Under the pieces are notes generated by a model. The model did no database searches. It was not told the origin of the DNA and was given only the letters and a program-made list of their open reading frames with translations. Position numbers and translations under genes: made by a program. DNA of 63,846 bases, the filler included, from Kipferlia bialata (taxonomy: Eukaryota): NCBI GenBank assembly GCA_003568945.1. It is 4 parts of 4 records of this genome, joined end to end, with 100 filler letters (N's around TTAATTAATTAA, not from the genome) between each part and the next. Parts side by side here need not be neighbours in the genome. Positions count along the whole stretch, not along the records: positions 1 to 20,348 come from BDIP01000383.1; positions 20,449 to 40,671 come from BDIP01000385.1; positions 40,772 to 60,989 come from BDIP01000386.1; 1 more part is not named here. One strand, given 5' to 3'. Below, one piece after another: positions 1 to 56,084 of the stretch. Within the stretch, counting starts at the first letter, position 1. Each line of letters starts with the position of its first letter.

Positions 1-3000
1 CCTGGCCCAGATGCCGGAGGAGGTGCAGGAGACACTGAAGCTGGGGGAGGAGGGTATGGGCACTGAGAATATACACTATATGTACAATATGTACACACTA
101 TTTGCACATACACAGGAGGGTTTGGTCTGAACCTGATTCATAATAGTTGTAACGACGAGTATATACACACCTCATTGTTCTATATATACACTAGATATCA
201 CTTATGGTTACCCATTTAGCCTGGAACAGGTGTACACATGCCTAAATACGCAGTTGATATATATATGTGTAAATATATGTGCATGTATATGCACGAAAGA
301 TAATACAGCTGCCCCCTCTCTCAACTCCCAGTGTACGTGCGGATATATATAGAGTATACTTGTATAGTAATCATATATAGCATATATAGTGTTATGCCAT
401 GTCTCTCACCCTAGGCCTGATCCAGGTGTACATGTGCTACAACGTCGAGGCCATGTGTGAGACATGCATCCCGTTCTCAGGTGTAGACATGTATATACAC
501 ATATATTTGTATACAAATGTATATATATACATATATATATATATATCTCCGATATTAAGGAAGATGTAAGTACATGATTCCATTCTTAGGTATGTGTATA
601 TGATACATGCACCCATTCATATCAGCACATGTCTTAAGAACCCAAGGATCTACATGTTTCGTGCATAGATAATATTTGTCTCTCCTCTATAACCACCGTT
701 GGGAATCTCTGTGTGTGTGTGTGTGTGGATACAACCTACATCTATATGAATATTGAACGTGAGTCTTCCCTTTGTGTATATCCCCGAGTGGTCCATATCA
801 TATACACCACAATACTTCGTGTTTGTAAACACCTTCCACGATAATGTAACTATGTCAGTGTCACCTATAGTCAGCACATATATGTGTTGTGTGTGTTGCT
901 GTGTTACACCTTGTGGGTTTGTTGTATCTATGAGTAATTACCGTGTATATGTCTTTCCATAGACTTGTTTATCCATCCATATCATCACATGAGTATCCTA
1001 TCTCGAGCCGGTCAGTGTTTTTGATATATCCCAGGACATATCTATATCTATATGTTATCAGGTGAAGATCCCAGTATTATATACTTCTATAAAACAATTC
1101 TACTCTGAGAATACTATACATATCACATGTATATCATATATACACTATGAATCATAACCTTAGGTGGTCAGTGCATTCGCTATGTCTCGGGGACAGAGTT
1201 GAAGTCAGCTAGGACCAGGTACACACCCCATCATTACATATGTTGATGTGACCCATGCGTCCACTCTCTCAGTAGCATTACTGGTATAGTCAAGTGTATT
1301 CTCATACACCAGAGATGCCCCCACCTTCCATATCTATCAATGTATATATGCATATACGTAAGTGTATAGGTATATATACTAATATAGCTCCAGCTATGAC
1401 CTCAGCTATAAACTCTATCATGACATCAGCGGCTTTGTCACTATTCTCAAGTATATCCTCTGGTCTCAGGGATGTGTATACATATGTGTATGTTGGCCTT
1501 ACACCAGGGATGCTATCCTCGCCCTCTATACCGAGGCCAGGGCAGGGCAGGCCCCCACAGAGGGCATTCCCCTCAATGAGGCGCCAGTGACAGGGTGAGT
1601 CGCACACACGAACACTCTAGATACCAAGTGTCACATCTATACATACCACCAACCTAACACGTCCCCTCCCCTCCCCTGCCTCTCACTATCAGTGTGGTGA
1701 GGGACCAGCAGGACTTCCCAAAGGTATGGCCACGCAGAAATATGTATATGTATATGTATACATATAGTAGCCAGTATTATGTATGTATCTGGACTACCCA
1801 AAGGTTAGGACGCACACGTATAGTTATAGATGTTTGCATAACAGTGTATACCGCTAGTCAGTTATGTATGAGTGTGGATAGATGTATGTATTGAGGTGTG
1901 GCTTGACTGACCTAGCGTATCTATAGACACCACTCAGTCTGACCACTGACCTACAAGGGTCCAGATCTATATATGTAGTATATCGTTTAGTATGTAAATA
2001 GTGATATATTAGAATACTCTGTGTCCGCTTAGTCTGACCATCAGGCTCCAGAGGTCAGACATACTAACTCACAGACAGACATATGTGTATATATATAGAA
2101 TACTGTATTGACCTCTATTACAATTGTTATAGTATCTATATGGTGTAGGTAGGTATTTGTATATATGTATACACTGTCACCCCTTAGTCTCACCACTAGG
2201 GCCCAGAGCTCGACGAGGTCCTATCCACCTTGGAGCACACTGAGGAGCAGAAGGAGAAGATTGTACGCAAATGCCATACTATATGGATAGACACTAAACA
2301 CCCCAACATATACACTACACAATCATAAGGATACACTCCATCCCGACAGATTAATCACAGCTGGACGAAATGTTACTCGCCCTTGATGCAAATCATTATA
2401 TAGCGCCAGCATCCTATCCATCAATACCCTATATATGTATACGTACACACATTTTGAACTGAGTACAGCTGGACACACATACACACTCTCTCTCTATACG
2501 TATAGTGTGTATATATTGTATGTAGTGTGTAGTGTATAGTATAGACACTGGTATATCCTCTCATGCCAGTCTGAGCACAGCTCATATGGATACACTCCCT
2601 ATTATCACAGCTGGACTTAATACCTCGTGCTTGATGGCGCCTCCTTCTATCCATTAATACACTATGTGTATACAAACGTATATATATATATACGTATTAT
2701 ATATATACGTATATATATATACTCATGCCAGTCTGAGCACAGCTGGACAAGGATGGAGGCACAGGGATATGAGGGGTTGGCCATAGGTACATATACAGTA
2801 TACTACATCCTGTTTATAGAGAGATATACATGGACTTATGTATATATCCCTATATTCATATGATACAAGTCAGGAGGCACCTGTGGGTGGATGGAAGTAT
2901 GTACTATGAGTGGTTGTATTTGTTGATTGTATATATATTTATGTATTGGTACATATAAATATACAGTATATAATATCCTATCCCACCCCAGGTGGCTGGT

Positions 3001-3788
3001 TCGACTGGGTTCAGGGGGTGGAGTACCCAGACTGCCCAGGTATATTGATATATATATATATATATAGGGACCCATACATCTATACCTATATATATATATA
3101 CAGTCATTGTCATCATCACTATCGCATTGAGTACCCAGACTGCCCAGGTCTGTACATTCAGATAGATGTACATAAGTATACGCATATATATACTGAGTGC
3201 CAAATGATTGAGTGTCCGGACTGCCCGGGTGCGTATATGGATATTTGAATATGTATGTGTATTAGGTGTGTATACATAGTCTAGATTTCTATAATTATTT
3301 ATGCAATTCCAATTAATTGTACATACTACTCTCCATATACATACATATATACTAACCATAGACTGTGGCACAGCCATGACAGGCACCGTCCTCAACATAG
3401 ACTCCATGAATACACTACCTGTACTATATTATATATATATATCTATGCTATACGTACTATTAATACCCAGACTGTGGCACAGCCATGACAGGCACCGTCC
3501 TCAACATTGACTCCATGGATGAGATCGGCCTCATGCTCGGTATGTGGACAAGTGTAACATTATACACACAGACTATATATGCATATATACACTCATGTAT
3601 ATATCACACGGCGTCTATGGACTTGGCTTCATTTGACTTACAAGCGTACCAGACCATCCTTGACCACATGTGACTATATGCTTGACTATTATTGACTCTG
3701 TTTGACCTCAGGTGACGGAGGGACTGCCCAGGTGTGCCAGTGTCCCAACCACCAGGGACAGCTGGCCATGGTGTGGGCATGTGGCTAA
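1..3788 (+). CDS. DUF1963/YwqG-like protein, multi-exon, 5' end outside the window
   Basis: Spliced by eye across GT-AG introns: LAQMPEEVQETLKLGEEG-LIQVYMCYNVEAMCETCIPFS...GLAIGGWFDWVQGVEYPDCPDCGTAMTGTVLNIDSMDEIGLMLGDGGTAQVCQCPNHQGQLAMVWACG*, with TAA at 3786-3788. The GGWxxWVQ-EYPxCPxC...IDS...GDxG...QCPxH...WAC pattern is what I recognise from bacterial DUF1963 proteins. Confidence 0.7.
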
Positions 3789-3881
3789 GGGGACTAAGGA
3801 AGTAGGCCTATTAGAGAGAGAGAGAGGGAGAGAGAGACAGCTGGCCATGGTGTGGGCATGTGGCTAAGTGGATAGACAGGA

Positions 3882-3934
<53 letters not shown>

Positions 3935-4471
3935 GGGAGAGAGACACCTCACCATGGTGTGGGCATGTGGCTATATGTAGAGAGAGAGAGAACGGGTGTT
4001 GGCAGGGCATCCTACTGGACAATGTAATGAGTAGATGGCTGCAGTGTAGTATGACAATTGTCCATATAGATGACCTGTTAGTGATAGAGTAGTCGAGTAT
4101 TCCACAGTGTACTACAAAGTGTACTGAATGCTCCGTCGCTACATGATTTCTACCCTTCTCTCCCCACTTTCTCTTTTTTCCCCAGACACGGATATCTCAT
4201 TGAGCTGCCTACTTCTGACAACCAAACATGGACAGCCCATACAAACTATGTCACTCGCTCTATTGTTGTCCCCTCAGCAGAAGAGGCCTCTGTGTAGCAG
4301 TGGACTCTACTTCTTCACCGCCTTGTTCACCTCAGCACAATCTCTGTGACCCTATTACCCTATCTTCGTTCTTCATAACCGCTATCTTTCTCCCTTCTAA
4401 CACCTCTCAATTCGTTCAGATATAGTACATACTTCATATCGTCTGTCTCTCTGTCTATTCACATCCTATCT

Positions 4472-5095
4472 CTACTTCTTGACCGCCTTGTCTATCTGGT
4501 CAAACAGGAACTGGGCATACTCGGGCTGCTGCAGCTCCTCGTCCTTGATGCCTGGGGGGTTAAAAGAATATCCTATATATTAATATCTGTATATAAATAT
4601 ATACATATATAAATATATACATATATATGTAACATACTTGTATAAACATTAGTACATAAATAGGTATGCTTCTGCAGCTCCTCGTCCTAGATGCCTGGGG
4701 GAAATAGTGTAGGTACAATACACAATGTATAGGTTTGTACAGTGTAATATATACATCCGCATGCATGTACACCAACATGTATTCATTCCCAGGTCCTATA
4801 TATGCTGCCGCCCTGAGCATACCGAGTAGCTCAACAGTGTGTCAATAGAGCATATATACACATGATATATGCATATACCAATTCATCTGTTCACTTGTGT
4901 ATCATACCTGCCGCTCTGAACATGTCAAGTAATATCAAAGGTATACACTACACCCTATATGAAATCATCTATACGCTTTATATACTATATATATCTATAT
5001 ATATATCTATTTGTACATAAGTATCATACCTGCCGCTCTGAACATGTCCAGCAGCTCCTCGGGCATGGCACTGGGGGTGAGGGTGGGGAGAGAGG

Positions 5096-5143
<48 letters not shown>

Positions 5144-8100
5144 TATGACATGGCACTGGGGGTGAGGATGAGGGGAGTATGAATTCATATAGAGAGAGAG
5201 ATGGCACAGAGATAGGGACAGGAAGGAAGAGAGAGAGACATGTATATCCAGGGCATGGCACTGGGAGAGGTGGGGAGAGAGAGGGCAAACACGCAAGAAT
5301 CGTAGTGAAAGTCTATGTATATTCACGCACAGGTATAATCACAGTAATATACTCATACTATATACCATACCTGAGGTCAAACACCTCTGTGTCGTAGTCA
5401 AACACCACATGTATTCTGTACATGGCTTCTCTACATACATGGATGACCATATCCATATATATGTGTGTGTTTATGTATATATGCATACACACCTCAGGTC
5501 AAACACCCCTGTGTCGTAGTCAAACCCGAGGAACTCATACACACTAATATATATTTCACTGATATACATAGAATATAGTATATATACAGTTTGGTATACA
5601 CTCTACCTCAGGTCAAACACCCCTGTGTCGTAGTCAAACCCAATGGTGTGCTCGTGCTGGAAGTCGGTGGGGGCACCTGATATGGGAGAAATAGGGAGAT
5701 GTATATATATATTTAGGGGGAGAGAGAGAGACCGAGATGCAGGAAGTCGGTGGGGGCACCTCAGATGAGATATCGATATGTATATATAGATAAATACATA
5801 TATGTATATATATAGAGAGAGATGCAGGAAGTCGGTGGGGGCACCTGGGATGAGAGAAGGAGATATGTATGTATATATATATGTATATATATGTATATGT
5901 ATGTATATATATAGGGAATGAGAGAAATAGAAGAGAGAGAGAGAGAGATAGACAGACGCTGGAAGTCGTTGTGGTACCTACGGAAAGACAGAGGCAAGTA
6001 CACACACACATAAATTCGGGTATATATATATCCCTGTCACCAACTGTACACACACACCATTCACCAACTGCTGTGTGTTATCTGCATATCCATACACATG
6101 CATAAAAATCTAGCACTATACATGGACACATATATATACAGAAATTTACAGACATATGTACCTATCACCAGCTGCTGTGTGTTGTCTACCTCGTCTCCAT
6201 GTAAATGCACATATACCTAGCACTATACATACACATATACATACAGAAATATATATAATCCATACCTATCACCAGCTGCTGTGTGTTGTCCTCCTCGTGG
6301 CCATGGCTGAAGGACTCACGCAGCTTGCCTGGGGGTAGAACAGGGTGCATATATGTATAGAGTATATGTATAGANNAGCTTGCCTGGGGGTAGAACAGGG
6401 TGCATATATGTATAGAGTATATGTATAGATATACTTAGTGTTTGAATCATAGATAGGTGAAGGACTCACGCAGCAGACCCGAGTGTAGGTTCACTATGAC
6501 TGACTATACATGACTCTATATGACTATCTGGGTCTACATGTAGATCGCAGAGTCTATAGGCATCGTGGGTCCATATCAGCTACCTAGATGTGTACACGAC
6601 AAACCATATATATAGTATATACATGGTATATATGGTACAGTACATATATAACTTATAGTATTTAATGAACACATACCAAACAGTGTCTGCCTCGTTGCCA
6701 TCTGCTCTGGGGTCTGGTGGGAGGGGGGGTATCGGGACAGGACGGCCTGGGGGTGAGGTGTACGTATACTAATACATTAGGGTAAGGAAGGAATGCTCCC
6801 ATTCTAAGAATCATATTCATGTACACACATTGTCAATATGTACCTTTGACAGCTCCAGGGCGTCTGTATCAAAGGAACAGGTTAATGTACGTATACATGT
6901 ATACACGTCCAATTATGACATTTATATATATTTATATATTAAAATAAATAGTATATGCAATACCTTTGACAGCTCCAGGGCATCTGTCTTTAAGACACAG
7001 CTAAGTATACACATACACACACACATATGTCCATATCAATGAAATACTTGTATATACACTATATTATACCCTATGTATACTATACCTTTGACAGCTCCAG
7101 GGCGTCTGTCTCAAAGGCATAGGACACACCCACAATGCTGTCCCTGGGGTCGGGATGATATATACAGACATATACTTCTATATCTTTACGTATTATATCT
7201 ATATGTACAAACACCACCCAACTTGTATCGAATATATACAAACACTATTATTGATATATATACATTCACATAATATGTCATATCATCAATAGTATATCTA
7301 TAATAGAGACTCATATATGCTACAAATACTACACATATAAACCCCCTCCTTGTCTCGAATGTGATGAAGTGGGCATAAGACATACCACATAGAATAATTG
7401 GAGTATGTGCTATTAATATACACCTATGCTATGTACTGCGTGTGACACCATAGCTTGTCTCGAATCTCAGGAAAGGGGACATGGAATATTCCATGAGTTG
7501 AGAGTATATTGTACACTTCAAATATATATACATATATACTGTAATATCTATACTATGAACTGCATGTGACATACCTTGTCTCGAATGTGATGAAGTGGGG
7601 CATGGGCAGGGACACCTCAAAGCCTAGATGTCAGCTTGGACATGACAATAAGAGTAAAAGTATATATATATATACATATATACAAGTATACACTAATGAG
7701 GCCCTATGCGTATCGAGAACATATATGTATATAGTAGTGTGTGGGGCATTGGCAGGGACACCTTAAATCCAATGGGTAAGGCTAGCCATGTAATGAAAGT
7801 ACACACAAGTAAGGGCACATATACAAATATTGTATGTATATGTACTATATTCTGTATACAATAGTATACTATACATACCCTCTGCTGGCAGCATCTCTGT
7901 GATAACTCTATATGGTACTTTTCAAATGATACTATATCTACACGTGCCCAAAGTATACAACAGTGTAAAAGCATATGAATGAATGATATGTATACACATT
8001 GTCCTACCCTGTGCTGGCAGCATCTCTGTGATATGTACACATATATAGTATATGCACTATAATATACAATCAATATAGATGATCTACTATGATATCGTAC

Positions 8101-8937
8101 CCTGTGCTGGCAGCATCTAGTAATATAAAAGAATCCAATCATATACCCTATGAGTATACCATATTATATATGCAATATTGTACAATAGTATATCATCCAT
8201 ACCCTGTGCTGGCAGCATCTCTGTGAACAGCACCTGGCCATCCGAGGGGGAGATCAACCTGATAGATAAGTAAAGGTATATACATATATATATAGAGAGA
8301 GCCTGGTATTAGAGAGCTAATACTATACTATAAGAAGTAGTATATCTATATATATAAGGGAGAGAGAGAGAGAGAGAGTGGACCTGGCCATCGGAGGGAG
8401 AGAGGAGCCTGATGGATTAGAGAGTTACTACTATACTATAAGAAGTAGTATATCTATATATAGAAGGGAGAGAGAGGACCTGGCCATCGGAGGGGGAGAT
8501 GAGCCTGAGGGTAGAAGAGGATATACACTACGTATATGTTTAGAATACTGCAAACACTACAACAAGAATAATACGTGTGATACACGTCTATACATTTGTA
8601 TACACCCTACCTCAGTGCATTGACCATGTTGGTCCTGTCAGCATGGAAGGTCATGAAGCATGGGGGTGAGACGGTGGGTGATACATGAACACACTATACT
8701 CATGTATATGTACAGATATGTAGCACGGAACGTCATAAAGCATGGGGTGAGGGGGGTGGGTAGGAGTGTGAAACGATGAATATGAATATGTATCCATACA
8801 TCCACGAATATATTCATTCCCTCCCACCCTATCGCTCTCCCTCTAGTATATATATAAAATCTGTGTGAGACTATGACCGCAATTAGTATATGGCCTCCCT
8901 ACCTACATGCCTTGTCTCCTCCCACTCCCCATCCGGC

Positions 8938-8980
<43 letters not shown>

Positions 8981-9789
8981 CTCCCCTCTCTGTATATACT
9001 ATATATATACTATACATGTGCATACCTACATGCCCTGTCTCCTCCCACTCCCTATCCGACACACCTCTCTCTCTCTCTCTCTCTCTCAATACTTATATAT
9101 ACTCTCTATACAGTATACATACCCACATGCCCTGTCTCCTCCCACTCCCCATCTGGCACAGCAGTGAACAGACGGGCAGGGCCACAGCAGATGTTCTAGA
9201 GGTTAAGGGAGGAACTCTACATACATATATGAGAGGGAAGGCCAGAGCAGATGTGGAGGGAAAGACAGCAGTAGAGAGAGTGAAAAGGAGAGAGAGAGAG
9301 AGAGACAGAGAAAAGTATGAAACAAGGTGGGCAAATCAATATATACACAGAGAGTCATCACAAAATAGCCACAGGGAGTAGGACGTATAATACATGATGA
9401 CACCGATTTAGAGAATCGAGAGAAGAACAGGGAGTGGGAATATAAGTCCTCGTTAACAATATCATGGCTAGAACTCAACACGCTCGTTCATGGAGAGAAA
9501 AATAAGGAGAGGGAGAGGCAAGTCCATACGTACACAAGGATAGTATACACCTGTCACTGACAGTATGTCACACTTCCATACACTCACTACACATATCACC
9601 CGCCTCTGTATACCTAACCAATACTAACTAGTGAGTAAGGCGTGACACTCTCCTTAATCAGCTCCCAAACGAAGCCCATACCACCATACGTGTCGCTATA
9701 TGTATAGTCCACTAAACACCACTCACCCTCCCCTTCCATGGCTTCAGGGCCCTCTCCACAAGACCAGTCTCCTTGGCACTCAACGGCAT
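4472..9789 (-). CDS. WASP-like protein: WH1/EVH1 domain plus CRIB/GTPase-binding domain, about 11 exons, about 225 aa, no polyproline or VCA
   Basis: Exons join in frame: MPLSAKETGLVERALKPWKGR (9789-9727) NICCGPARLFTAVPDGEWEETGHVGFMTFHADRTNMVNALRLISPSDGQVLFTEMLPAQGFEVSLPMPHFITFETRDSIVGVSYAFETDALELSKAVLSR (WH1-like) ... LVIGAPTDFQHEHTIGFDYDTGVFDLSAMPEELLDMFRAAGIKDEELQQPEYAQFLFDQIDKAVKK* (CRIB plus WASP GBD helices). Stop TAG at 4474-4472. Confidence 0.85.
6841..7110 (-). repeat. Exon-echo array (donor side) in the WASP-like gene
   Basis: TACCTTTGACAGCTCCAGGGC(G/A)TCTGT at 6841, 6961 and 7083 (the real exon). Spacing is about 120 bp with unrelated AT-rich spacers. Confidence 0.9.
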
Positions 9790-10005: not shown

Positions 10006-10770
10006 ATGCGGGCTGCTGTGCTTGTTCTGGCCGTTATTGTGGCCGTGTGTGTGTCTGAGACCGTTAGGGTCCCTCTCTTTGCATTTTCCGGTGCCGAGCT
10101 CGGTGCTGAGTCTGTTTCTGACTTTGTAGCCTCTGAGGGCCAGCGCTACCTGCTTCTGGATGGCGTGTCCCACGAGAGGATCATGCTGAGGTCCTTCTCT
10201 GCCGGCATTCTGTCTGAGGGTGCCCCCTTCCACGCTGTGTCCAGCTACGAGGCTGAGGCCGGTGCCTCCCTCTCTGAGACCCTCTCCCTGTCTGTGACTG
10301 ATGTTGAGGACACAGAGGAGGCATCTGCTATGGGTATGGGCGAGGGTCTGACTGTGGTCAGGTTCAGCCACCCCGTGGTGGGCACAGAGGCAGCAGAGGC
10401 CAGGATGCAGTATGTCAGGTAGGGAGTGTATACACATATATATATGCATCACATGGGTGGGGGGATGGTGCATAGTGTGTATACATGTAGTCTTGAGAGC
10501 TAGGGTGTGTTGATTGTTGGTTATACGCCAGTAGCGTCGCCTGAGCATGTGTATATGGAGTCGGTACCGTTCTATGGTATATCGGTACCGATACCACTTT
10601 ATGGTCGATATCACATCCTATTCCACTATCACCTTTCTATGATACGTGTGCTCTAATACCTTACGCCAGGTCCCTTGTCTGCTCTGGTGCCACTGTCTCT
10701 CTCTCTCTCTGTCTGAATATATCTCTATGTCTCTCACCTCCTTGGTCCTTTGTCTCCTCCGGTGCCACTG

Positions 10771-10801
<31 letters not shown>

Positions 10802-14778: not shown

Positions 14779-14814
<36 letters not shown>

Positions 14815-14943
14815 TATATATATATATGTATATGTATACACAATAATATACCCTTCTCACCTCAGGATGGCCAGATCTCCATTGCCTCCAGGATCATGTC
14901 CATCCTGGACAGGGTGGGGGAGTGCGAGCAGGTATTGTATTAT

Positions 14944-14974
<31 letters not shown>

Positions 14975-40784: not shown

Positions 40785-40817
<33 letters not shown>

Positions 40818-40891: not shown

Positions 40892-40924
<33 letters not shown>

Positions 40925-44000: not shown

Positions 44001-45808
44001 TCTGACGCAGATGCTGCATCCCTGAATGCTGAGGGAATCAATGCTGGCATAATCAATCCTAAGGGAAACAATGCTGAGGGCGCTACAGGGGGTGACAAGA
44101 GCAGCCCTGCCTCTCCACCCCTCAATCCTGAGGGTAGTGTCACTGGAGTGGATGATACCTCTCTCGCTGTCGAGCAGGACTACCCATTGATGCCAGGTGT
44201 GTAACCTCTATAATCGTAATTGTCTGTAGCATTACATTGTATATATAGTTTTGAGTAGTTTATATCAATATCACAAGATGGAGGGACCTCTATCTCATTA
44301 ACAGAACCAGTCATTGAAGCATCAATATAGCATTTTACTCTATGGTATGTATATAATGCTTATACATAGTATAATATCTGTGTGTTGTTGATTCTCTTAT
44401 ACCTATTTGACACTAGGCCTGGGAACCAAGAACGAGCCCGACCTGGTTGTGATGTGGGGGAATCTCTCCAAGAAGGACCCCCTGTACACACACCTACTGC
44501 ACATAGCAGAGGGAGAGGGAGAGGCAGATGCATCACAGGGAGTGACAGGTACAACCCATAGTAGTATATATATATGTATATATAGGATATACTATATACG
44601 CATCTACTCAGCACAGCAGAGGGAAAGGGAGAAGCACATGTGCATGTCGAGGCTGTCACAGGTACTGCGCACTACATATACATATATATATACATATGTA
44701 TTATACTATATATATTACTGTTCTACACATGTACCTGTTACGGGTAAGACCTAGTCTTATGACACGTATTAAAGTGTGTTTTGTATTTACATCCCTATAT
44801 ACTAAAGGAAGAGCCTCTTCCGAAGAGGGAGAGGGAGAGGGAGCACTTGTTCAGAAGTCACAGTTCCCCATTTCTCTCATTTCAAAAGTGCATAGGTGTC
44901 GCCACAGATTCTGTATTTTGTATATATAGATATAAGTTAATCATATATTGTCCGGGATTCGTGATGTATATATGCGTAACACTAGGCACCACTGTTGTCT
45001 TCAGAACCAAGAGAAAGCCAGACTGTCGTCAGAAGGGAGTGATTCAGGTTCGTATGATAAACAATGTGTATACGATGCCTCTCATCTAGGCAAAACTTAT
45101 ACTCATTACTCATTACTTATGGTTATTCATTACCCAATGATACTCAGGTTGGTCTCTCTGATGATCCTGCCAAGGTGGCAGCTAGGGTTAAGGGGATTCA
45201 CCTGAACGCCATAATGCTACACAAGGTTGGTATTGTATATAATGTATATGTATATATAGTGGGCATACATATACAACTAGGTGTGGAGATGTGTAGTTTA
45301 CTTGGTATATACATTGTAATACAAAAATTGAAAACATATATATATATTCATTGTAAGAATTTCATACCTGTAGACATTTATGTATGTCCCTGCTACACCA
45401 GGTTTTGTAAATAGAGAATATACAACATATTGAGTGTGGTACATACTGTGTACTTCATATATTGTTATATATGTACACACATATATATGTGTGTTATTAG
45501 ATACCGCAACGCCTTCCTCTTACAACGTGTCGTACCCAAGGTCCTAACTTAGGACATACATATGATGATGGAGCACCCTATACTCACTCCCAGATTGGCA
45601 GCCTCAGGAATGTAGTAGAGAGCGAGGTCCCTTTCCCTGCTCTCCTGGACGCTGTGCTAAAGGGTGCAAAGGGAGGGGTGGGAACTGCCCCCATATGCAT
45701 CTACAAGCCAACAAGCTGCATATCTAACGCAGCAAGTGTGAGACAGAAGGCCAAGAGAGTCAGAAGGGTGTCCCAGATGTGCTGTGACAACCCTATGCTC
45801 AAGGCATA
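41048..45808 (+). CDS. Hypothetical multi-exon protein, 5' end probably lost at contig start
   Basis: About 12 GC-rich exons with GT-AG ends, e.g. ASRAKGTIRRVLRTAILRDIERRVEK, TKQRLIGNSFWVKRKILEIQ, DVQLAADDTDGHIHACVVTCK. It ends ...QMCCDNPMLKA* (TAG 45806-45808). No family recognised. Confidence 0.6.
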
Positions 45809-46260
45809 GACCAGGAGTCAATGGGCGCCAATCAATCAATTGATTCTATGACGTCCTCAAGGCCTAGATGGTATATATATATATAAATGATACATGGATC
45901 ACTCGTGTCAAGGTATTGTACTAGGGGAGTACTATAATAGAGACTCTAGTGCTCTGTACCATGAAGTTAGAAGGGAACCGCAAAGGGACTGTCTCATTCA
46001 TTCGATTGATAGACATGTTTACTGATGACACACCAGTGAACTCAATGATTTGGTGCCACGTAACCCTAACACTGCCAGCTGTCATATATGAATAAACCTC
46101 ATGATTAATGAGGTACTCTCTCCCTCTCCCTTCCCTAGTAACTAAACTCCAAAATTGAGACCCCATCACTGCCAGCTGGTCTGCAGATATCCTCTAAAGA
46201 GTCCATAACTGAGCCATCCTCTCGTCTATGTGTCTAACACTACTCAGACACAATGTCTAG

Positions 46261-48065
46261 TTACAACTGTGATCCCATCACTGCCAGCTGGTCTGCCTCC
46301 TCGTTCTCAGCTATGCCACTGTGACCTGGGGGTGAGGAATGTATATACACAAATACAAAAACTCTCTCTCTATCTCTCTCTCTCTCTATATATATATATA
46401 CATATGCATCAGCTAAGCCGCTGTGACCTTGGGTGAGGAAGGTATATGATGTATGCATATATACATATATATACTCACATATATATACATATATGCTATG
46501 TTGCTGTGGCCTGGGGGTGAGGAAGGCATATGTATAAATATTTATATATATATACACACTATATACACTAATATGTAGGTGCTGTGTGACAGTCCGGAAG
46601 GAGCACACAACACATATCAAAACATACACACATGTATATGTATATGTGGGAAAGGAGGTTGGAATATACTAGATGGACTGTACCTGGTGTGTACCACTGC
46701 TGCCAACTATACCTTACATACACAGACAGTCTTATACTGCCACTAAATACTCACTATTTGGCCTCCTATGGTATATAGAGTTCACCAGTACAGAATATAC
46801 CACACCTGGCGTGTACACCAGCACCACAGTTGCCAGGTTCCTGTATAACAATATATGTCTATTCTATACATATATACATATACATATATACATATATATA
46901 TATCAATATATATATATATGTGTGTGTATACCTGGTGTGTACACCAGCACCACAGTTGCCAGGTTCCTCAGACCAGCCAGCTCATATCTCAGCATGGAAA
47001 CATCCTGGGGGTAAGAATTGTATTGAAGCAGTATAATGAAGCATTCAAATAATAAATCATCGTTGTGATTGTATACCAGTCCCTCCAGCTCATAACTCAG
47101 CATGTCAACGTCCTGGTCGTTACTATTGTACTAAACTGACGTACATGTAATATACTGAATAAGAATACACTTACTTTTGTGTTCTCCTTTGCTTTCCAGT
47201 GCCCTGCAAGACCAAGGGTGTACTGAGGTGGGCGAATTTATCCATAGTACAATAATTGAATATACTATCACAAGTACACTCATTAACACAATGTAAATCC
47301 TGGTTCCGTATTGAGAGACTGTATCCCTAGTGTTCCCCTCAATGCATGTAATAAACACTGTTTACCATAATGTCCCTACCTTGCTGTCCGAGCATATGAA
47401 CTCATATATATATATCAGTATATATGTGTATATAACTATATACAGAGAGAGAGATAGAAGACATATGAGGTGCTGTGATACCTTGCTGTCTGAGCATATC
47501 TAATCACTATATATCAAGTTACCCACAATAATATTGATATCCATTCCCATAATATCTATATATCAATATATATTTACATACCTTGCTGTCTGAGCATCTC
47601 AGATAACAAGTTTACACATACACAAATATAGAAATACCGAGTAGAGAAGAGGTAATAGTTAATTATACTCACTGCCAATATACACTTTCTATCATCATAC
47701 TATTGATTTTCATACCTTGCTGTCTGAGCATATGAACACGACAGGCCTGGGTGGCTGGGTGTCAGAGAAAGAAGAGCATTGGTATCCCATAGAACAATCA
47801 TAAACACACTATATATGTATTAATGAACACGACTGATCCAAACGGCTGGGAATTAGAGAGAGAAGAGGACGATGGATGTAAACGCATATCAATACATGAA
47901 GAATACACTTTAACGCAGCACGATCACGAGTGGATACTCATACATATACACACACACACACACAAATATACGAGTATAAATACCGGTGTCGCTGTGTCAC
48001 TCCATGCGGCATGGAGTCCATGCTATATATATACATACATACATACCATGTATATATCCCGTATC

Positions 48066-48096
<31 letters not shown>

Positions 48097-48316
48097 ATAC
48101 CTGTGTCGCTGTGTCCCCCTCCCCCCTTGCTCTCTTGTCACTCCCAATTCCATCGTTTGATATATACAGTATATGAATACCATACATATATATATATATA
48201 TATATATATACCTGTATGTCCCCCTCTCGCCTTGCTCTCCTGTCACTCCCAATGGATGTCTTGAGGGCACGGCATGCTAGCATGAAGGCTGATATTAGGA
48301 ATGAAGAACACTTAGG

Positions 48317-48355
<39 letters not shown>

Positions 48356-51300
48356 GGATGTCTTGAGGGCACGGCAGGCCAGCATGAAGGCCGGAGTTAG
48401 GGTATATATAATGGTAAGAAAGATGGAGACAGAGAGCGGGGGGGAGAGAGAGAGAGAAAGAGATAATAGTGCAGAGACAGAGATGGAGAGAGAGAGAGAG
48501 AAAGATGTTTTGAGGGAACCCTACAGACATTTGTATATACCCTCACCATGTAGCTCTGCCCTCTATTTTGTCATATCTATAAATGAATACATAGTCAACA
48601 ATAGCCCTATATACAAGTAGGTATACATATACCATGTAGCTTGGCCCTCTGGTTGGTCTGCACATCCCCTACCGTACATATCAATAAATTTACACATAGC
48701 CAACAATAACNNNNNNNNNNNNNNNNNNNNNNNNNNNNNNNNATTTACACATAGCCAACAATAACCCTACTCATACTAATGTGGTGTTAATCCATACTAT
48801 GTAGCTCTGCCCTCTGGTTTGTCTGCACCTCCCTACCATACATATATATAAATATATACATAGCCAACAATAACCCTATACTAATGTGGTCATTATACAC
48901 ACCGTGTAGCTCTGCCCTCTGGTTTGTCTGCACCTGCCCTGGCAGAGGGACTTGGATGTCGGGGATGCGGCATCTGGCAGAGTCTGGGGTTAGACCCATA
49001 GATCAGGAACTCATTCAAAAAGCCGCCTAGTGCAGAAAGCTGGGGTGTGACACTAGGGTGTAATCTATAAATGCATACAGCCATTTGGTACCTGGGTATA
49101 CAAAGTGGACACCGGACCCAGCCTTGGCCTTCTTCTGGGGGTGAGGCAAAGACAATCATATATAATGTACTATGAAGAATAATACATGAAGCTGGATGGA
49201 TGGTTATAGTTTATATATAATACAATATAGATCCCGCCTTGGCCTTCTTCTGAGGGTCAAGACAGTTTGATTATAAGTAATATAGAGATATATTTAGTAT
49301 ATATTGATAGTTACAGTGTATAGAATACACTATAGATCCAGCCTTGGCCTTCTTCTGGGGGTGAGACAGTGATATATTTCACTATATATATTACACAATA
49401 TATATAGTATATATATATATATATATGATTTAGTATACCTTGCATTGGCCTTCTTCTGGGGTGAGACACAGTTATATAACACTATATGAGTATGATATGA
49501 GCATTCTAAAAGAATATGACAGTTACAGAAAATGTAATACGTAACATACCCAGCCTTGACCTTCTTCTGGGGGTCAAGGTAATCACATATACCTTATGGC
49601 AATGAATATAGTACTTTGAATAGATTTAATGCATAGAATAGAATCAAAATAGAGCACTATGATAAGCCTCATACCTTGCTCTGGTTGTTGCTGCATGCAC
49701 CGTCGGTAGGATAAATACTATATACATATATATATCACACTTACCACAGTGTACAACTGTTTTAGTAAACAAATATATATATATACATTTATACCTTGCT
49801 CTGGTTGTTGCTGCATGCACCGTCTGTGAATGCAATGTACGTGGCAACGCTGGGGTAAGTGATTATTTAACAGTATATTCACAAGTACTAATACCAATGG
49901 TATGGTATGCTAGTAATTGCAATGTACGTAGCAACGCTGGGGTAAATTAAGGGCACATAATAATGTCAATGTGCCGATATGCAGTATTCATTGGTTGAAA
50001 TGAGAGAGGGGGAGAGAGACAGAGACAGACTCACAAGCTCTCATACTCCTCTACGGCATGCTGTCTCTCTCTCTCTCTCTCTCTAATGAATTTGAGTAAC
50101 ACACCCTCTCTCATCCTCCTCTATGGCCTTGTCGTACATGCCTCCACAGGTGAACTGGGTGAGACGACCTGGGGTGCACTCTATGCATCTCTCGTAGGCT
50201 GTGACCCTGGTGGTGCCAGGGACGGGGCCTGGATTGATTAGTGGATTGATTAGTGGATTGATTAGTGGATTGATCCTGGTGGTGCCAGGGACGGGGCCTG
50301 TAGGGTTAGACTATACGACATAGAGTATCTATATCACAATACTAACGTTTAGAAATACTACACACATTATGTATTCGTACATATACATAGAAAGAGAGAT
50401 AGGGAGAGAGAGATCCATGTACCTGGCAGTATGAGGTGGCACAGCTTGGCATTTACCATATACACTTCATACGTATATATTGTGTATCATATATACATAT
50501 ATATATATACAATGTGTCATATATAGATGTACCTGGCAGTATGAGGTGGCACAGTATGAATGGCTTATCAGACACACTTTACATATGTATATTTCTATAT
50601 ATATTCGAATATCATTTTATGGGTATTGCAAATGTATGTGTGTGTGTGTGGGTACTATATATATGTAGATACCCGGCAGTACGAGGTGGCACAGCTTGGA
50701 GTACATGCACTATACACATTTGTATATACGCATATCCATATATCCATATATACACATATATACATACAATGTGTCATATATAGATACCTGGCAGTACGAG
50801 GTGGCACAGCTTGGAGAACTTGTCATGGATGCACTTGCGGTTGTTGCCTGAATTGAGGTCATAAAGAGGCATAGAAAGCATCGTATTGTATACAGTATAT
50901 ATTCATACCCAGGCCATATATTCTTTTGGGGTTCATGCCTGCAACTAAGGATTCAGGGCATAGTGTATGTATATATACATATATATGTAGAGAGAGAGAG
51001 AGATAGAGAGAATATATATAAATATAGATACATACCTCTAGCTGGTATGTGCATGGCATAGTATGGCGCCAGGTCTCTGAGAGTCTCACTGAGACAGGTG
51101 TCCCTGTGGATAAGGGAAAAAGAGAAAGAGAAAGAGAAAGAATGGGAGACAGAGAGATGTGGTGTGATTGCTGCTAGTGAGTGTCATATGAGGGTCATAT
51201 GAGTGTCACTCAGAGAAGTGTCCCTAGAAGCAGTATATTACACATATACAGATATGGAAAATGGATATTAAACTATTCTAAGGGATGGGACTGGGATAGA

Positions 51301-52224
51301 TAAGACAGACGTACAACGGCCTCTCAAAGAACAGTACATCTTCACATACTTGAGCTTGGGTCTCAATGGAGAGTAGAATGAGGCATTATTAACCTATAAT
51401 ACTTCATTATCGATACATATTCACTTACTTGAGCTTGGCCGCTATGTTGAAGGTCCGGAAGTCCCTGGGAGTGAGAGAGTACGGATATTATATTATACCA
51501 TACTTAACATACGAAAAGAGAGAGAGAGAGAGAGATAAGAGGTCCGGAAGTCCTTGGGGAGTTAGAGTACGGATATAGTACCATCTTTAACATACGAAGA
51601 GAGAGAGAGAGAGCGAGAGAGAGAGAAAGAAAGGAGAGAGGTCCCGAAGCCCTGGGGAGTGTTTGAGAATGGACATTTGAATCAATGTACATACGAAGAG
51701 AGAGAATGGAGAAAGAGGGAGTCAAATAAGGTGCCTGGTGAGTTTCTGGTCATGGACTATCCCATCCTGGGATGGTAGTACACCCCTGCCCCTCTGGTCA
51801 TCCCACTCTCTAGCCCTGTCTGCTCTATCTGCCCCTGGTCTCTCTCTCTCCCACTCCCTAGCCCTGTCTGCCCTGTCACCTGCCCCTGATGCACCCTTGG
51901 AGGGTCTCTCTCTCTCCCTCTCCCTGGAGCTGACAGCCACTACCTAGATGATGAGCATCGGATTCGATATATAGTATATAGAAATTGTATACAGATGCAC
52001 GTCTCTCTCTCTGTGCCCCCTATGTTATATTTCATGCAATATATAAAACAATAGCATAGTATATTATACCATATGTATATACCCATATATACTCTATATT
52101 ATACATATATATACTCTATATTATACATATATATTATACACAAGAGACACTAAATATTTGGTGCCCCCCAGGATACATCCACCACACTGTAAAATGACAC
52201 TATATAACATATATACTACATACC

Positions 52225-52263
<39 letters not shown>

Positions 52264-54532
52264 CACTATAAGTATACTATATTCCATACCTCCGGTGCCC
52301 CCCATGCTGCATCCCCCATATTACTCATCATGGCACTACACACTATATATATATACTATATACTACATATATATTTTATACTATACACCATGTATATATA
52401 GTACATATACACACCTCTGGTGCCCCCCATGCTGCATCCCCCATATTACTCATCATGGCACTACACACTAACTATATATGCATACTATATACACATATAC
52501 TATATATATATACTATTTACAATATACCTCTGGCGCCCCCCATGCTGCATCCCCCATACTACTCATCATGGCACGGTTGGCACCCCTGGGGAGTGAGCAT
52601 CTAGTATGTATATCAATGCAAAACTCATAATTCATTTAGAACAACACATATATATCTGTCGCGTATAGAGAGTATTGTGAATGGTGGAACATACACGCAT
52701 CGCCTTATAGGCCTGGTATGAGTACCTCATCATGGGCAGTGGTCTGTGCCCAACAGACACTGAGGACGGTAAGGGTCTCTCTCTCTCCCATTCCTTCTCT
52801 CTCTTTTTCTCCCGCTTCTCCAGCCTCCTCTCTCTCTCTTCAAGTTCCCTCTCCTGTCTCTCTAGCATCTGTTGCTTCTTGGCCAGTTCCTCCTGCTTCC
52901 TGGCTAGTGTCGCTCTCTCAGCCTCCGCAACCTCTCTCTCTCTCTTGGCTATCTCGGCTAGAGTGTCTCTCTCCCTAACTCTCTCCCTATCCCTTTCACT
53001 CTCTCTCTCTGGTCCCACCTCCACACCGCCAGAAGGCTGGTACAGGTTGGTGGGCTGTGGTCAGTCATGTTGGTACTCCTATTTAGGATGATATATGGTA
53101 TAATATTCACTCTTCATTCATATGTATGATATACTATTCAATTTTGCTCACAGAATACACCTCTATCTATATATACATGCATATATAGCCTTACCCTTGA
53201 TGCGGCACTCGGTCTAGGGCCAACATACTCGGGAAACAGACTGGAATTAGGTCTTGGCATACACCCATTATACACCACAATTACAAATGGTACCAACTCC
53301 CATTATTTTTAATGTAAGGGATACCACAGCATGCAGAATTCACAGTGGAGAACCACTGTCCTCCAGTGCCTCCAGCCCACCTATATATATAATTAAATAT
53401 ATATATAGTAACATGCCGCACCATGCTGAATCCACAGGAGATTCCGCCAGTGCCTCCAGCGCCTCCAGCCCAGTCTCCATGTCAAATGAACACATGTGTC
53501 CATGGGCTGAGGTAATGGGACCAGGGATGGCCCTCACACAAGTCTCGCTCTCCCACTCGGCCCTGACCCTGTCTGCTCTCTCTCTCCTTCTCTCTCTCCT
53601 TCTCTGTACACCGATGGTACCATACTCTCTTCCACCATCTGAGTTTGAACTGGAAGTGCTGCTTACACCCCTGCTATAGACACTCTCTCCCTCCATGGAT
53701 ACATCACCATTCCATGTGGTGCTCTCTGATACTGTACTGGGTACAATCTCTCTGTCACTCTCTCCCACTCCCTCTCCCTCTCCCTCTCCTTCTTTGTCTC
53801 TGGGAGAGTGCCATCCCTCACCAATGGCATTCTCACTACGGGGTAAGCTACAGGAGCATTCTAATGCCTGAAATATTGTACAATATAACATGAGACACAA
53901 ACTACATGCATCAAACATAATATAGAATATTTACACATGGAATATGTAGAAACTATGGAGAGTACCACCCATCACCGATGGCATTCTCACTGGAGAATGA
54001 GACTTAACTACATGCATCACACATCGTATAGTATATATACATAGGAAGTATATATATAACATGTCACGGGCCACCCATCACCGATGGCATTCTCACTGCT
54101 GCCCTGCATCCTTAAGGGTGTAGAAGCCGAAACAATGCTCATATTGAATAAAAATATACACTATTAAGGTTATTTTACTCCTGAATCCACATACGTTACC
54201 TCGTGTACTGCTCTGTATAGTAATAGTATATAATCAGAGTAAATATATATGTATCTAACACAAGTACATTATGCATTGACTATACAGAAGTTACCTCAGG
54301 TACTGCTCCGCATCCCCTCGGGTGTAGAAGTCAAGTATATACCTAGTATATACTTAGTAAATTGTAATAGCGAGATATTAATACTATTCGATACAGAATG
54401 AAAAGGGGTAAGTGTATATATTGATATAAGTATATGTACCTCATGTATTGCTCTGCATCCCCTCGGGTGAAGAAGCCCTTGTACCTGGCACCACTGTACC
54501 CTAGGACGAGATCCTTGCACTCGGCCCAGGAA
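46261..54532 (-). CDS. Ribonuclease H1-like protein with viroplasmin-type hybrid-binding domain and a very long linker; first exon not resolved
   Basis: HBD exon SWAECKDLVLGYSGARYKGFFTRGDAEQYM starts at 54532. Catalytic exons: YIAFTDGACSNNQSK, AKAGSGVHF, LPGQVQTNQRAELH, ICSDSKY, VYTPGHSGIAENEEADQLA. All four acidic active-site positions (D, E, D, D) are present. Stop at 46261. Confidence 0.85.
49118..49578 (-). repeat. Exon-echo array (acceptor side) in the RNase H1 gene
   Basis: GCCTTGGCCTTCTTCTGGGGGT-like unit at about 49120 (the real exon), 49236, 49341, 49446 and 49553. Spacing is about 105-115 bp with unique spacers. Confidence 0.9.
50231..50274. repeat. (GGATTGATTAGT)n 12-bp tandem repeat, about 3.7 copies, between two perfect 26-bp direct repeats
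   Basis: CCTGGTGGTGCCAGGGACGGGGCCTG occurs at 50206-50231 and 50275-50300. Confidence 0.9.
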
Positions 54533-56084
54533 CTAAGGTTAGAATAGAGAGTTCCTCATACTATCAACTGAATATAGTGTGTATGTGTAAGGACCAGATC
54601 CTTGCACTCGGCCCAGGAACTAAGGTGAAACTTCAGACTAATATTATGCTATTGTATATACTATGTATATAATACACTTAAAATACTGTATCCCATAAAT
54701 ATGGGTCCAATGACCAGATCCTTGCACTCGTCCCACGAACTAGGGTTAGAAGTAATACATACCACTCAAATACTATTGTACTTACTATATATATAAGTAT
54801 AACATGTACAAGTATAGCTCGACTGTACCCAAGGACCAGATCTTACACTCGTCCCAAGAACTAAGATGAAAAGAACACTGTTACATAATGTAGCAATATA
54901 TTACAGGTATTATGGAACAACATATCCTCTAAACTAGGTACAGGGACTCATATATCAACCAATTAAACACAATATAGACAGGAATAATGTAACATACACT
55001 ATGTTACATGTTGATAGAAACGTAGCATAAATAGATCGACCGAATGAATCGATGGGGGGGGGAGTATGGTTGTCATTGTCTCATCCAACGTATACCTTTA
55101 TGTTCCTGTTTAGTGACCGAGTGCTGGGGTAGTGCCCCCCCCCCCATATATATATATATGATGTAGCCACTTACTCCCTGTATCTCTCTCTCCATGTCTC
55201 TCCATGACTGTCTCTATCTATATACTCTCACCCCCAGAGAGACATCGATATTGACGACATCGTTCCTCTTAGGAATCCACACTACGGCTACAGCCATGGC
55301 CCCTGCCTGTGACAAGGCCCGTGAGCACCTGTGCAACCCGGTACGTTATAGTCCACTCATGTATACCAGTCGTATTATAATATAGAAATTATACATAATT
55401 ATATATATCTGATGATCCATGATTTGGGAATTGTTTTACTGCTGAGTTTGTGTGTAGGGTGTCATCTTATGACAGGATCTCGTTATTGAGTGGAGACGTC
55501 GCTGCAAGGGAGCCAGTCAATGCTGTGTGTGTGTATCACCACACATTGGACGTATGGGTAGCACGTGTAGCAGTGAGTGCCGTGATACTTACAAGGTATG
55601 GGGTGGAGAGAGAGAGATACTTTGAGTGCATAGCAAGCAGACCCCATAATGTAGTACAGTATGGTATAGTATATAATAGGATATCGTATGTCCCTGTAGC
55701 AGTATGTTTCCCTCTGACTTCTAGAAGTGGGTAGCTACAGCCTCCAAGCGTGGCAGAGACGCCATGGGGGTATGGGCTGGGTTACAGCCGGTACCTGCCA
55801 TCCCTGGAGGAGAGGGAGAGGGAGAAAGAGTGGGAGAGAGAGAGAGGGAGGGAGAGAGAGAGGGAGCGGGAGAGAGAGAGAGGGAGGGAGAGGGAGAGGG
55901 AGTGCGGGAATGGGAGTGCAAGTACTGCCTTTCAGACTCAAAGGCAGGTGGGTGGCATTTATGGCAGCATGTATAGAGGGTAATGCACATATCCTGACCC
56001 CCCCAAGCTCAATACTTTGAGTACCCATCCTAACTGTGTATGTATTACCCCTCTATATATGGATAGCCTGTCCCCCCGCTAACC

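Follow-up and report, generated by a model that had tools for sequence, protein, structure and literature searches.

The stretch analysed here (the window) comprises 63,846 nucleotides of Kipferlia bialata, a free-living relative of Giardia, and consists of four scaffolds joined end to end. The proteins it encodes show full identity to those of K. bialata. The genes and arrays found in it are listed in Table 1. The gene at 4472..9195 we take to be WASP-like, on account of what appear to be WH1 and CRIB-like motifs; Pfam searches with two of its single exons returned no match. Pfam likewise gave no match for P0003, the protein atlas provided no lead for that protein, and metagenome scans with P0003 and P0006 as queries recovered no related loci. 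The analysis of the exon-end copies ('echoes') was carried out on 72 modelled introns within ~64 kb, 40 of which derive from our own gene models, while the deposited gene models are predictions made with transcript hints and not with junction reads. The modelling omits scaffold 4 and the PNKP-like gene at 55238-57854, in which a near-repeat scan found no pair. The P0002 model is used here minus its first exon, of 14 nt, intron 41497-41776 was excluded from the spacer and codon tests, and echoes with a score/length below 0.6 were excluded from the codon, boundary and k tests.

Table 1. Genes, echo arrays and related features, in positions of the window
Feature	Position	Strand	Remarks
10-exon gene	11..3788	+	own model; echoes in 4/9 introns
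Stop-codon array	3754..3975	+	real end 3788; two echoes end at +5 and -1 of stop; purine-rich fillers
Stop-codon echo, WASP-like gene	4305..4492	-	ends at +2 of stop
WASP-like gene, 10 exons	4472..9195	-	own model, open frame; 9/9 introns with echoes, 24 copies
Donor-side array, WASP-like gene	5371..5640	-	real exon end 5607; echoes 5493-5527 (35/35 identical), 5371-5403; unrelated fillers
Donor-side array, WASP-like gene	7879..8230	-	real end 8203; echoes 8101-8118, 8008-8031, 7879-7902
Acceptor-side array, WASP-like gene	8258..8504	-	two fillers 59/63 identical (whole-unit duplication class)
4-exon gene	10006..11455	+	acceptor-side echoes 10670-10696, 10745-10771, 11309-11336
Gene of P0005 (KIPB_002358)	14464..17330	+	echoes in 4/5 introns, 9 copies
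Single donor-side echo, Band-7/SPFH gene	18054..18085	-	1/8 introns of gene
Gene of P0003 (KIPB_002365)	41440..45809	+	echoes in 5/10 introns
Candidate intron gain, P0003 gene	41471..41801	+	19 nt (peptide DPVCDT) doubled across intron 41497-41776
Stop-codon array, RNase H gene	46060..46297	-	two echoes
RNase H1 gene of P0002 (KIPB_002366)	46261..54532	-	echoes in 13/17 introns, 34 copies
Donor-side array, RNase H1 gene	47380..47740	-	real end 47716; echoes 47582-47597, 47482-47499, 47380-47401
Acceptor-side array, RNase H1 gene	49115..49566	-	four echoes ahead of exon start 49134
Acceptor-side echo, RNase H1 gene	50228..50297	-	filler made up of 3.8 copies of a perfect 12-nt repeat, supplying branch-point motif
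Donor-side array, RNase H1 gene	50423..50815	-	three echoes; of their fillers, 1 and 3 are alignable and 2 is not
Acceptor-side array	54495..54870	-	three echoes ahead of exon start 54532; no exon found upstream

Decoy copies of the adjacent exon end, set at even distances, occur in about half of the modelled introns. An echo consists of the end of an exon with its splice site, measures 10-50 nt and occurs one to four times per side, with up to five copies at one junction. The junction-anchored scan recovered echoes in 38 of the 72 introns and yielded 50 donor-side and 37 acceptor-side entries, where 0.14 entries are expected by chance; they represent 86 distinct echoes, as one copy was scored on both sides. 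A scan for near-repeats retrieved 47 pairs from scaffold 1 and another 63 from scaffold 3; scaffolds 2 and 4 had none, and ten block shuffles per scaffold gave 0-1 pairs. Every array cited in the preliminary description of this DNA was found in place or within a few bases, and its statement that the small exons of scaffolds 1 and 3 are mostly echoed agrees with the 37 of 60 exons of up to 135 nt that carry an echo. Echoes are present at 52/111 ends of short exons versus 2/33 ends otherwise, a bias that weakens to p=0.052 inside echo-rich genes. Assembly artefacts may account for two apparent copies that abut N gaps in the scaffolds (6322-6429 and about 48690-48765).

The geometry of the arrays is regular. 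Introns lengthen by ~110 nt per echo in the junction-anchored scan, in line with the growth of introns that had been proposed, and echo units constitute 46% of the intron DNA; unit length shows no tie to exon length (rho -0.05). Where an intron has both kinds, the donor echoes lie ahead of the acceptor echoes (15 of 16 cases), and the nearest echo is closer than the farthest to the real exon in 14 arrays versus 8 (p=0.02). The first unit straddles the exon-intron border in the junction repeat test, as in the type described for F7 intron 7 (see below). According to the boundary test the homology of the repeats stops at the coding edge, within ~4-6 nt of the splice site. The duplication includes the splice site, as had been claimed, but does not span it by chance, considering this narrow limit and the fact that stop codons, as noted earlier, are echoed as well (here at 3/11 gene ends). 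No echo was found at the 4 start codons, and introns without echoes contained no intron-only repeats.

The echoes decay neutrally. Their dN/dS of 0.44 differs from 0.2 (p=2e-5) and four stop codons occur within them, which argues that they are neither alleles nor alternative exons; 12 of the 59 variable sites have one letter in all echoes and another in the real exon. The splice dinucleotides are kept in 40/50 donor-side (GT) and 27/37 acceptor-side echoes (AG), AGGT is found in 28 of the 50 donor echoes, and 21 of the 37 acceptor echoes keep an AG at moderate score, versus 14% of background AGs. Use of the nearest decoy would break the frame or add a stop in 43 of 54 cases. The deposited models and proteins skip the echoes and use the innermost sites, which, at the level of predicted genes, would fit the expectation that decoys are ignored. 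Recursive splicing at AG|GT was rejected, as exons end in AG at 22/28 echo-bearing donors versus 33/44 others (p=0.78); exons start with GT in 5/26 echo-bearing cases versus 11/46 others. Tandem or mutually exclusive exons were rejected as well, given the decay, the stop codons and the fact that the longest echo covers 81% of its exon.

The fillers between the echoes have a median length of 81 nt (5-95% range 59-129) and a GC content of 30%. Two spacer classes can be discerned, an aligning minority (about a quarter of neighbours) and an unalignable majority. The spacers had been described as mutually unrelated, which is true for most, but in 19/128 pairs from one array the similarity lies above the 99th percentile for pairs from different arrays, and TRF recognises seven arrays as ordinary tandem repeats with a period of 83-134. 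Whole-unit matches are concentrated in the neighbouring filler-filler pairs, 9/33 of which are true duplicates (KS p=6e-7), and 13 of 85 neighbouring pairs are homologous along the full unit at or above the 99th percentile. The similarity ranks of filler versus core are uniform (KS p=0.57), with 4/52 reaching the 99th percentile, and the fillers look unrelated to the core from birth. All four introns with a high filler-core score hold another weak echo, and one of the matches is mainly a CT tract. In 24 neighbouring pairs the echoes are 93% identical or more, and the fillers of 18 of these pairs fall short of the 99th percentile. Given that echo identity and spacer similarity correlate at 0.11, whereas clock-like decay simulated at 8 settings predicts 0.4-0.8, most units are something other than plain tandem duplications; the earlier dismissal of that process stands for these and fails for the true duplicates. 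The alignments of those fillers that do align extend over 36-69 columns, with 0-13 mismatches and 0-5 gaps, and such few differences indicate that filler DNA is not hypermutable.

Several sources of the fillers were considered. Local templating produced no k-mer excess in the 50 of 85 fillers tested, on which basis local mosaic templating was rejected; neighbouring introns showed no excess as donors (p=0.34), and a donor for any filler was absent from the 64-kb window. The previously suggested all-versus-all comparison, run within the window, did not support a mobile filler family: the 12 best of 18,578 comparisons were microsatellite tracts. The fillers fit their position, carry their own branch point and resemble real intron ends. 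On our own ad hoc scale, the exon-proximal acceptor scores like a real one in 14/14 acceptor pairs sharing at most 5 nt, a level reached by 1.5-8% of filler-like DNA, and the older acceptor scores real-like in 7/14, with different letters. In the gene at 11..3788, echo 3362-3411 is 48/50 identical and its branch point differs. Complete introns were rejected as fillers, with a far-end AG in 26/41 versus 69% expected and a far-end GT in 6/29 versus 35%. Donor-side fillers display a G-over-C skew throughout, unlike the first halves of plain introns, and this counts against an intron-end source. They also contain direct repeats in excess (z 2.0-3.4), as do plain introns; palindromic snap-back synthesis was rejected for lack of a palindrome excess in them. 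Acceptor-side fillers have an excess of inverted repeats (z 2.6-4.3), and the fillers of the two sides are mirror-like in 93% of bootstraps, zero being within the interval. A perfect 12-nt repeat makes up one filler, and a 10-nt reiteration is found at a junction. Post-stop fillers are UTR-like (TA+AT 0.06-0.22 versus a median of 0.42 in intron fillers), and as there is no splice site to share at a stop, a same-locus template explains these echoes more easily.

The creation of introns at AG|GT, another earlier expectation, is not evident. There is one candidate intron gain, in which the same 19 nt stand at the end of one exon and the beginning of the following one, on either side of intron 41497-41776, leaving a duplicated peptide; a third copy lies at 41682-41708. 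This exon pair scores 19, while none of 4502 null pairs reached 15. Rogers-type ends, in which the intron start resembles the downstream exon and its end the upstream exon, are near the null among the 72 introns, the longest matches being 12-13 nt (2/72). Short exon-terminal repeats at the opposite intron end score at least 6 in 8/72 introns versus 5.7% in the null (means 3.5 versus 3.2).

Our best explanation, to which we give somewhat less than even confidence, is that the units arise by repair of breaks at the coding edge, in which a non-local intron end is copied, and that exchange then expands the arrays. Where the DNA breaks at the border of a coding exon, repair would copy in part of a real intron end situated elsewhere; the strands would then be rejoined before the point of the first break, which would duplicate the exon end and leave non-local filler. 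The filler would probably be joined via the few bases common to splice sites and closed by polymerase-theta end joining. New units would be added beside the exon, pushing the old site outward as a decoy. Once two copies are present, unequal exchange would probably duplicate whole units, which would account for the alignable spacers. The spliceosome probably passes over the decoys by pairing sites across short exons, and a break inside an exon could create a new intron with a duplicated peptide. In the available part of the published repair-gene table, K. bialata has PolQ, its Ku70 cell is empty, unlike what canonical NHEJ would need, and Rad51A is absent. Against this break-repair reading counts that it leaves the anchoring at the coding edge without a cause, and that the perfect 12-nt repeat filler looks like slippage synthesis and not like copied intron.

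A more speculative extension, possible but held with low confidence, is a genome-wide patching from junction to junction, in which other introns would provide their ends for the repair of coding-edge breaks, perhaps as excised RNA that polymerase theta copies. Intron growth would then start at the exon and proceed outward, in the manner of repeat-spacer arrays, hits in exon interiors would yield new introns, and the reduced spliceosome would now be exon-defining.

One may ask whether the units began as tandem duplications of the exon end plus most of the intron, the AT-rich part decaying while conversion keeps the exon-like part young. This calls on known processes only, covers the anchoring at splice sites and stops as well as the position-appropriate fillers, and fits the absence of intron-only repeats and the graded similarity among filler-filler pairs; simulations with 0.2-0.3 indels per site per copy match the pooled statistics. 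We nonetheless hold it to be unlikely, since the conversion would have to act across merely 10-50 nt of homology, and at the decay needed GT should be kept in 64% of donor echoes, fewer than observed (p=0.011). The different letters of the branch points retained by old acceptors, the absence of remnant k-mers in the fillers tested and the sites at which echoes jointly differ from the real exon speak against it too, and without conversion it is rejected by the clock simulation. The same break-and-rejoin process with filler made de novo by a slippage-prone polymerase theta, selection retaining usable splice signals, is nearest to the model of the preliminary description. It would explain the 12-nt repeat filler and the junction reiteration, and is consistent with the direct repeats (shared with plain introns), the mirror-like fillers, within their wide interval, and the presence of PolQ without Ku70 in the part of the table available. 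It appears quite unlikely, given that a new acceptor is far harder to hit than a donor, yet 37 acceptor echoes were scored next to 50 donor echoes, that post-stop fillers differ in composition, and that donor-side fillers lack the palindromes. A reading in which only the echo was pasted into a pre-existing long intron appears less likely in view of the 110-nt slope and the real-like old acceptors.

Exact anchoring at the coding edge, stop echoes and ready-made splice signals would all follow if repair used a homologous chromosome or gene copy with near-identical exons, and introns and UTRs diverged beyond recognition. A Dmc1-type recombinase is biased toward the homologue. Fornicates have this type only, as far as the available part of the source indicates, and two of three genes looked up have identical-protein copies on other scaffolds, namely P0003 (copies P0001 and P0004) and P0005 (copy P0006). 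However, no second copy is recorded for the RNase H gene, which has the most echoes, 17 of the 20 replication genes that are listed for K. bialata in the available part of the published list occur once, a dN/dS near 0.5 leaves little room for standing synonymous divergence, and no origin is given for the divergence, making this source very unlikely. Use of the echo sites, as alternative micro-exons or in recursive splicing at AG|GT, would suit the AGGT and scored AG motifs, but is highly improbable in view of the neutral decay with its stop codons, the lack of AG enrichment at echo-bearing exon ends, the disrupted frames and the deposited proteins. Stacking of alleles in tandem by the assembler is barely credible: two exact duplicates do flank N gaps, but junctions have up to five copies, the echoes show stop codons and a neutral spectrum, and arrays of regular period lie in gap-free sequence. 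A short-read graph assembler requires reads across each join. The published K. bialata draft is a SPAdes assembly of Illumina reads.

The origin of new intron DNA and the way in which introns acquire sequence have long been open questions, most new introns having no traceable source in the accessible parts of the literature (PMC3443670, PMC4202315). The arrays likely record an undescribed break-repair process that lengthens introns, in which each added unit is date-stamped by the divergence of the adjoining echo. For K. bialata 124,912 introns have been reported, and if the window is typical of these, thousands of dated events would be traceable and could test the view that its intron richness is ancestral (PMC5874029). 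The arrays are also natural experiments in splice-site choice, with near-identical donors or acceptors 70-170 nt apart, where the splicing machinery would be forced to choose the innermost site. In the available part of a survey of this lineage's spliceosome, 87 of 174 proteins were retained and snRNAs were unidentified (PMC6679479). On a practical level, echoes can be mis-predicted as micro-exons.

Our literature search, whose coverage stops short of subscription journals, returned no account of the echo-array pattern, and the main text of the K. bialata genome paper contains neither 'duplicat' nor 'tandem'. The likenesses to known systems below hold for the accessible parts of the accounts cited. 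Introners and introner-like elements have been proposed as a bulk source of intron sequence and are comparable in this respect; the fillers in the window form no element family and have one splice end only. The tandem duplication of AG|GT described by Rogers (PMC3265369, PMC3443670) similarly concerns a local duplicate with splice signals that is hidden by splicing, but makes a precise new intron from exon sequence, whereas in Kipferlia the duplicate adds foreign filler to introns already present and the lone candidate gain leaves a duplicated peptide. New introns of Daphnia pulex share the AT-rich inserts of mostly unknown source and the exon-terminal direct repeats, and repeated double-strand breaks were proposed to lengthen introns there (PMC4202315). 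Those repeats are 4-12 bp, lie at the opposite intron end and led to NHEJ being invoked (PMC4202315), while the Kipferlia repeats are 10-50 nt, stacked at a fixed period by the same junction, in an organism for which Ku70 is absent from the available part of the table. Closest in layout is human F7 intron 7, with a 37-bp VNTR across the exon-intron border, where the authentic donor precedes identical pseudo-sites that stay silent, the site farthest upstream being used (PMC1557585); the deposited Kipferlia models predict a similar choice. F7 represents one locus, in which homologous 37-bp units are arranged head to tail and confined to the donor side (PMC1557585), whereas in Kipferlia half of the modelled introns are involved, on both sides and at stops, with ~110-nt units of which the non-coding parts are mostly unalignable.

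The analysis drew on 64 kb of sequence, six proteins and published papers. K. bialata is a free-living fornicate, for which the draft genome paper describes a diploid profile of k-mers as well as 124,912 GT-AG introns (PMC5874029). The four scaffolds (positions 1-20348, 20449-40671, 40772-60989 and 61090-63846) are joined by N-linkers, and each of three exon queries returned one K. bialata protein at 100% identity. The deposited proteins P0002 (RNase H1) and P0003 were placed on the window with zero mismatches, residues 1-190 of P0005 mapped without mismatch, and one of our own exon versions is backed by P0006. The remaining genes were modelled to open frames, using a small gene finder together with manual curation. 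The resulting set comprised 72 introns in 11 genes (32 from deposited models, 40 from our own). In the modelled introns the branch-point motif sits a few bases upstream of the YAG acceptor, as has been described for diplomonads (PMC6679479).

The copies of exon ends plus splice site within introns ('echoes'), reported in the preliminary description, proved to be real. A junction-anchored scan recovered 50 donor-side entries (copies of the end of the upstream exon) and 37 acceptor-side entries (copies of the start of the downstream exon), representing 86 distinct copies in 38 of the 72 introns, where 0.14 is expected by chance when exons are swapped between introns; four further short echoes and one three-copy array (see table) fall outside this count. 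Near-repeat pairs numbered 47 on scaffold 1, 63 on scaffold 3 and zero on scaffolds 2 and 4 (shuffles: 0-1). Echoes measure 10-50 nt and recur at median periods of 111.5 nt (donor side) and 108 nt (acceptor side), each adding 110 nt of intron length (r=0.83). They occur in 33 of the 37 introns of at least 250 nt and in none of the 20 introns of at most 140 nt; together with the intervening DNA ('filler') they cover 9,940 of 21,464 intron bases. In 15 of the 16 introns with both kinds, every donor-side echo lies 5' of every acceptor-side echo.

Features of individual loci in the window
Position (strand)	Observation	Reading
6322-6429; ~48690-48765	Exact duplicates flanking scaffold N gaps	Overlap in the assembly, or unresolved units of very recent origin
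8660-8661; 8742-8743 (-)	WASP-like gene: frame needs acceptor in AT, not AG; branch-point motif normal; same AT in its echo	Possible non-canonical 3' splice site
14307-17330	Identical protein P0006 on other scaffold, over ~385 aa	Possibly alleles left uncollapsed, or else recent segmental duplicates
20449-40671	Scaffold 2 overall: long exons, short introns, no arrays	
20771-34880 (+)	4,657-codon reading frame; only two introns (59 and 80 nt), no echoes	
41440-45809	Identical proteins P0001 and P0004 on other scaffolds, over 396 aa	Possibly alleles left uncollapsed, or else recent segmental duplicates
41497-41776	Intron of the P0003 gene; third copy of the flanking 19-nt repeat inside	Candidate intron gain
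41948-41980	10-nt unit repeated directly at echo's GT	
42135-42545 (+)	Two types of echo alternate (A-B-A-B) along an acceptor-side array	Points to duplication of a two-unit block
50230-50274	Whole filler a perfect 12-nt repeat, 3.8 copies	
51734-51465 (-)	Deposited RNase H model uses GC donor; bases upstream resemble acceptors of following array	Boundary may be mis-predicted
~54070-54130 (-)	RNase H intron: donor-side echo abuts acceptor-side echo with no intron between, like a spliced junction less a few bases	Simpler reading: old core deleted
54495-54870	Three-copy array	
54870-55245	Exon 5' of first RNase H acceptor array not located; deposited 14-nt first exon overlaps opposite-strand gene start	

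Homology between neighbouring copies extends into the exon side (median 31 for donors, 23 for acceptors) and is short on the intron side (median 4 nt and 6 nt, respectively; 3 in unrelated introns). Stop-codon exons are echoed as well, as initially noted: the last coding bases were copied at 3 of 11 gene ends, and 4 of these 5 copies stop within 5 nt of the stop codon. Start-codon echoes were found at none of four gene starts. Since the homology ends at splice sites and at stop codons, the anchor is the coding edge and not the splice site alone. All 16 intron-internal repeats lie in echo-bearing introns, with none in the 34 plain introns.

Echoes differ from the real exon at 11% of third and 4.6% of second codon positions and 4 stops in 137 are among the changes. 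Their dN/dS, with each change counted once, is 0.44 (0.30-0.64), which fits 0.5 (p=0.46), the expectation for a neutral copy next to a constrained exon, and rejects 1 and 0.2. The splice dinucleotide is retained in 40 of 50 donor echoes (GT) and 27 of 37 acceptor echoes (AG). Echoes are always partial, reaching at most 81% of an exon, and in 43 of 54 cases splicing at the nearest decoy would break the frame or introduce a stop. Given this neutral decay, the stops, the partial exons and the frame breakage, it is unlikely that the echoes represent stacked alleles, alternative exons or sites of recursive AG|GT splicing. The only suspect copies are the two exact duplicates at N gaps.

The spacers had been described as mutually unrelated, which holds for most pairs, but 19 of 128 within-array filler pairs aligned above the 99th percentile set by 7,713 pairs from different arrays. 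Among neighbouring filler-filler pairs 9 of 33 reached this level, with ranks shifted upward (KS p=6e-7). Ranks of fillers against the core, the rest of the intron, were uniform (p=0.57); the 4 of 52 comparisons that passed were all in introns with another weak echo, one mainly via a CT tract. Over 36-69 aligned columns, alignable fillers show 0-13 mismatches with 0-5 gaps, comparable with the echoes, and for echo pairs at least 93% identical the fillers stayed under the threshold in 18 of 24 cases. Tests rejected fillers as complete introns, as pieced together from their own intron and as derived from neighbouring introns, and the mobile filler family envisaged earlier did not emerge from the spacer comparison within the 64-kb window. 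Fillers nevertheless suit their position, being G-skewed on the donor side, C-skewed on the acceptor side, and rich in purines with few TA/AT after stop codons. On our own ad hoc scale, the exon-proximal acceptor scored real-like in all 14 acceptor pairs sharing at most 5 nt (chance 1.5-8%) and the older acceptor in 7 of these, with different letters.

Our favoured reading, to which we tentatively give a little less than an even chance, is that a DNA break would occur at the coding edge, the broken end would be extended on a non-local intron end and rejoined 10-50 nt inside the exon, and copies would later undergo unequal exchange. Of 22 untied arrays, 14 have a nearest echo that resembles the real exon more closely than the farthest one does (p=0.02), suggesting that arrays grow at the exon side. 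In a published survey of repair genes PolQ is listed for K. bialata and the Ku70 and Rad51A cells are empty (PMC8516963).

Each rival fits part of the data better. The preliminary exclusion of plain tandem duplication is upheld as far as clock-like decay is concerned, as in eight simulated settings echo identity and filler score were correlated at 0.38-0.81, versus an observed 0.11 (n=73), but it is qualified by the neighbouring fillers that align. Counting against our favoured reading, the pooled values are recovered in simulations with a flat rate of 0.2-0.3 indels per site per copy, although the echo alignments have just 1 gap in 2,331 bases; with gene conversion added, duplication accounts for the anchoring and leaves the retained GT and branch points unexplained. 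De novo synthesis of filler accounts for the perfect 12-nt repeat, whose sequence points away from a copied intron end and toward slippage, but not for the near-equal donor and acceptor counts. Nearly all of the geometry is accounted for by repair from a diverged homologue, and two of three genes looked up have identical-protein copies elsewhere; the RNase H gene, however, has none on record, and of the replication genes examined, 17 of the 20 with a K. bialata entry are single.

Deposited models choose the first donor and the last acceptor, thus the shortest exon. Among exons of at most 135 nt, 52 of 111 ends are flanked by echoes, versus 2 of 33 among longer exons (p=9e-6; p=0.052 inside echo-rich genes alone). 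Exon definition would explain both the innermost-site use and this bias. As to the proposed creation of new introns inside exons, the Rogers-type duplication signature is absent or weak overall in the 72 introns, but one candidate was obtained: an identical 19 nt closes the upstream and opens the downstream exon, placing DPVCDT twice in P0003. The score of this pair was approached by none of 4,502 null pairs, and it is the sole case.

The consulted main text of the genome paper makes no mention of intron duplications or tandem repeats (PMC5874029). Our literature search returned no account of two-sided arrays that are pervasive and have unrelated fillers, and we found no description of their scale, constant period, anchoring at the coding edge and foreign filler DNA. 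PMC13685798 contained nothing that bears on them. The Kipferlia arrays are real and striking, and their component parts have precedents. Precise intron gain through duplication has been demonstrated by experiment (PMC3265369). Duplicated donor sites are shared with the minisatellite of F7 intron 7, where they are silent (PMC1557585), and break-repair inserts in Daphnia carry exon repeats of 4-12 bp (PMC4202315), against 10-50 nt for the echoes of Kipferlia.
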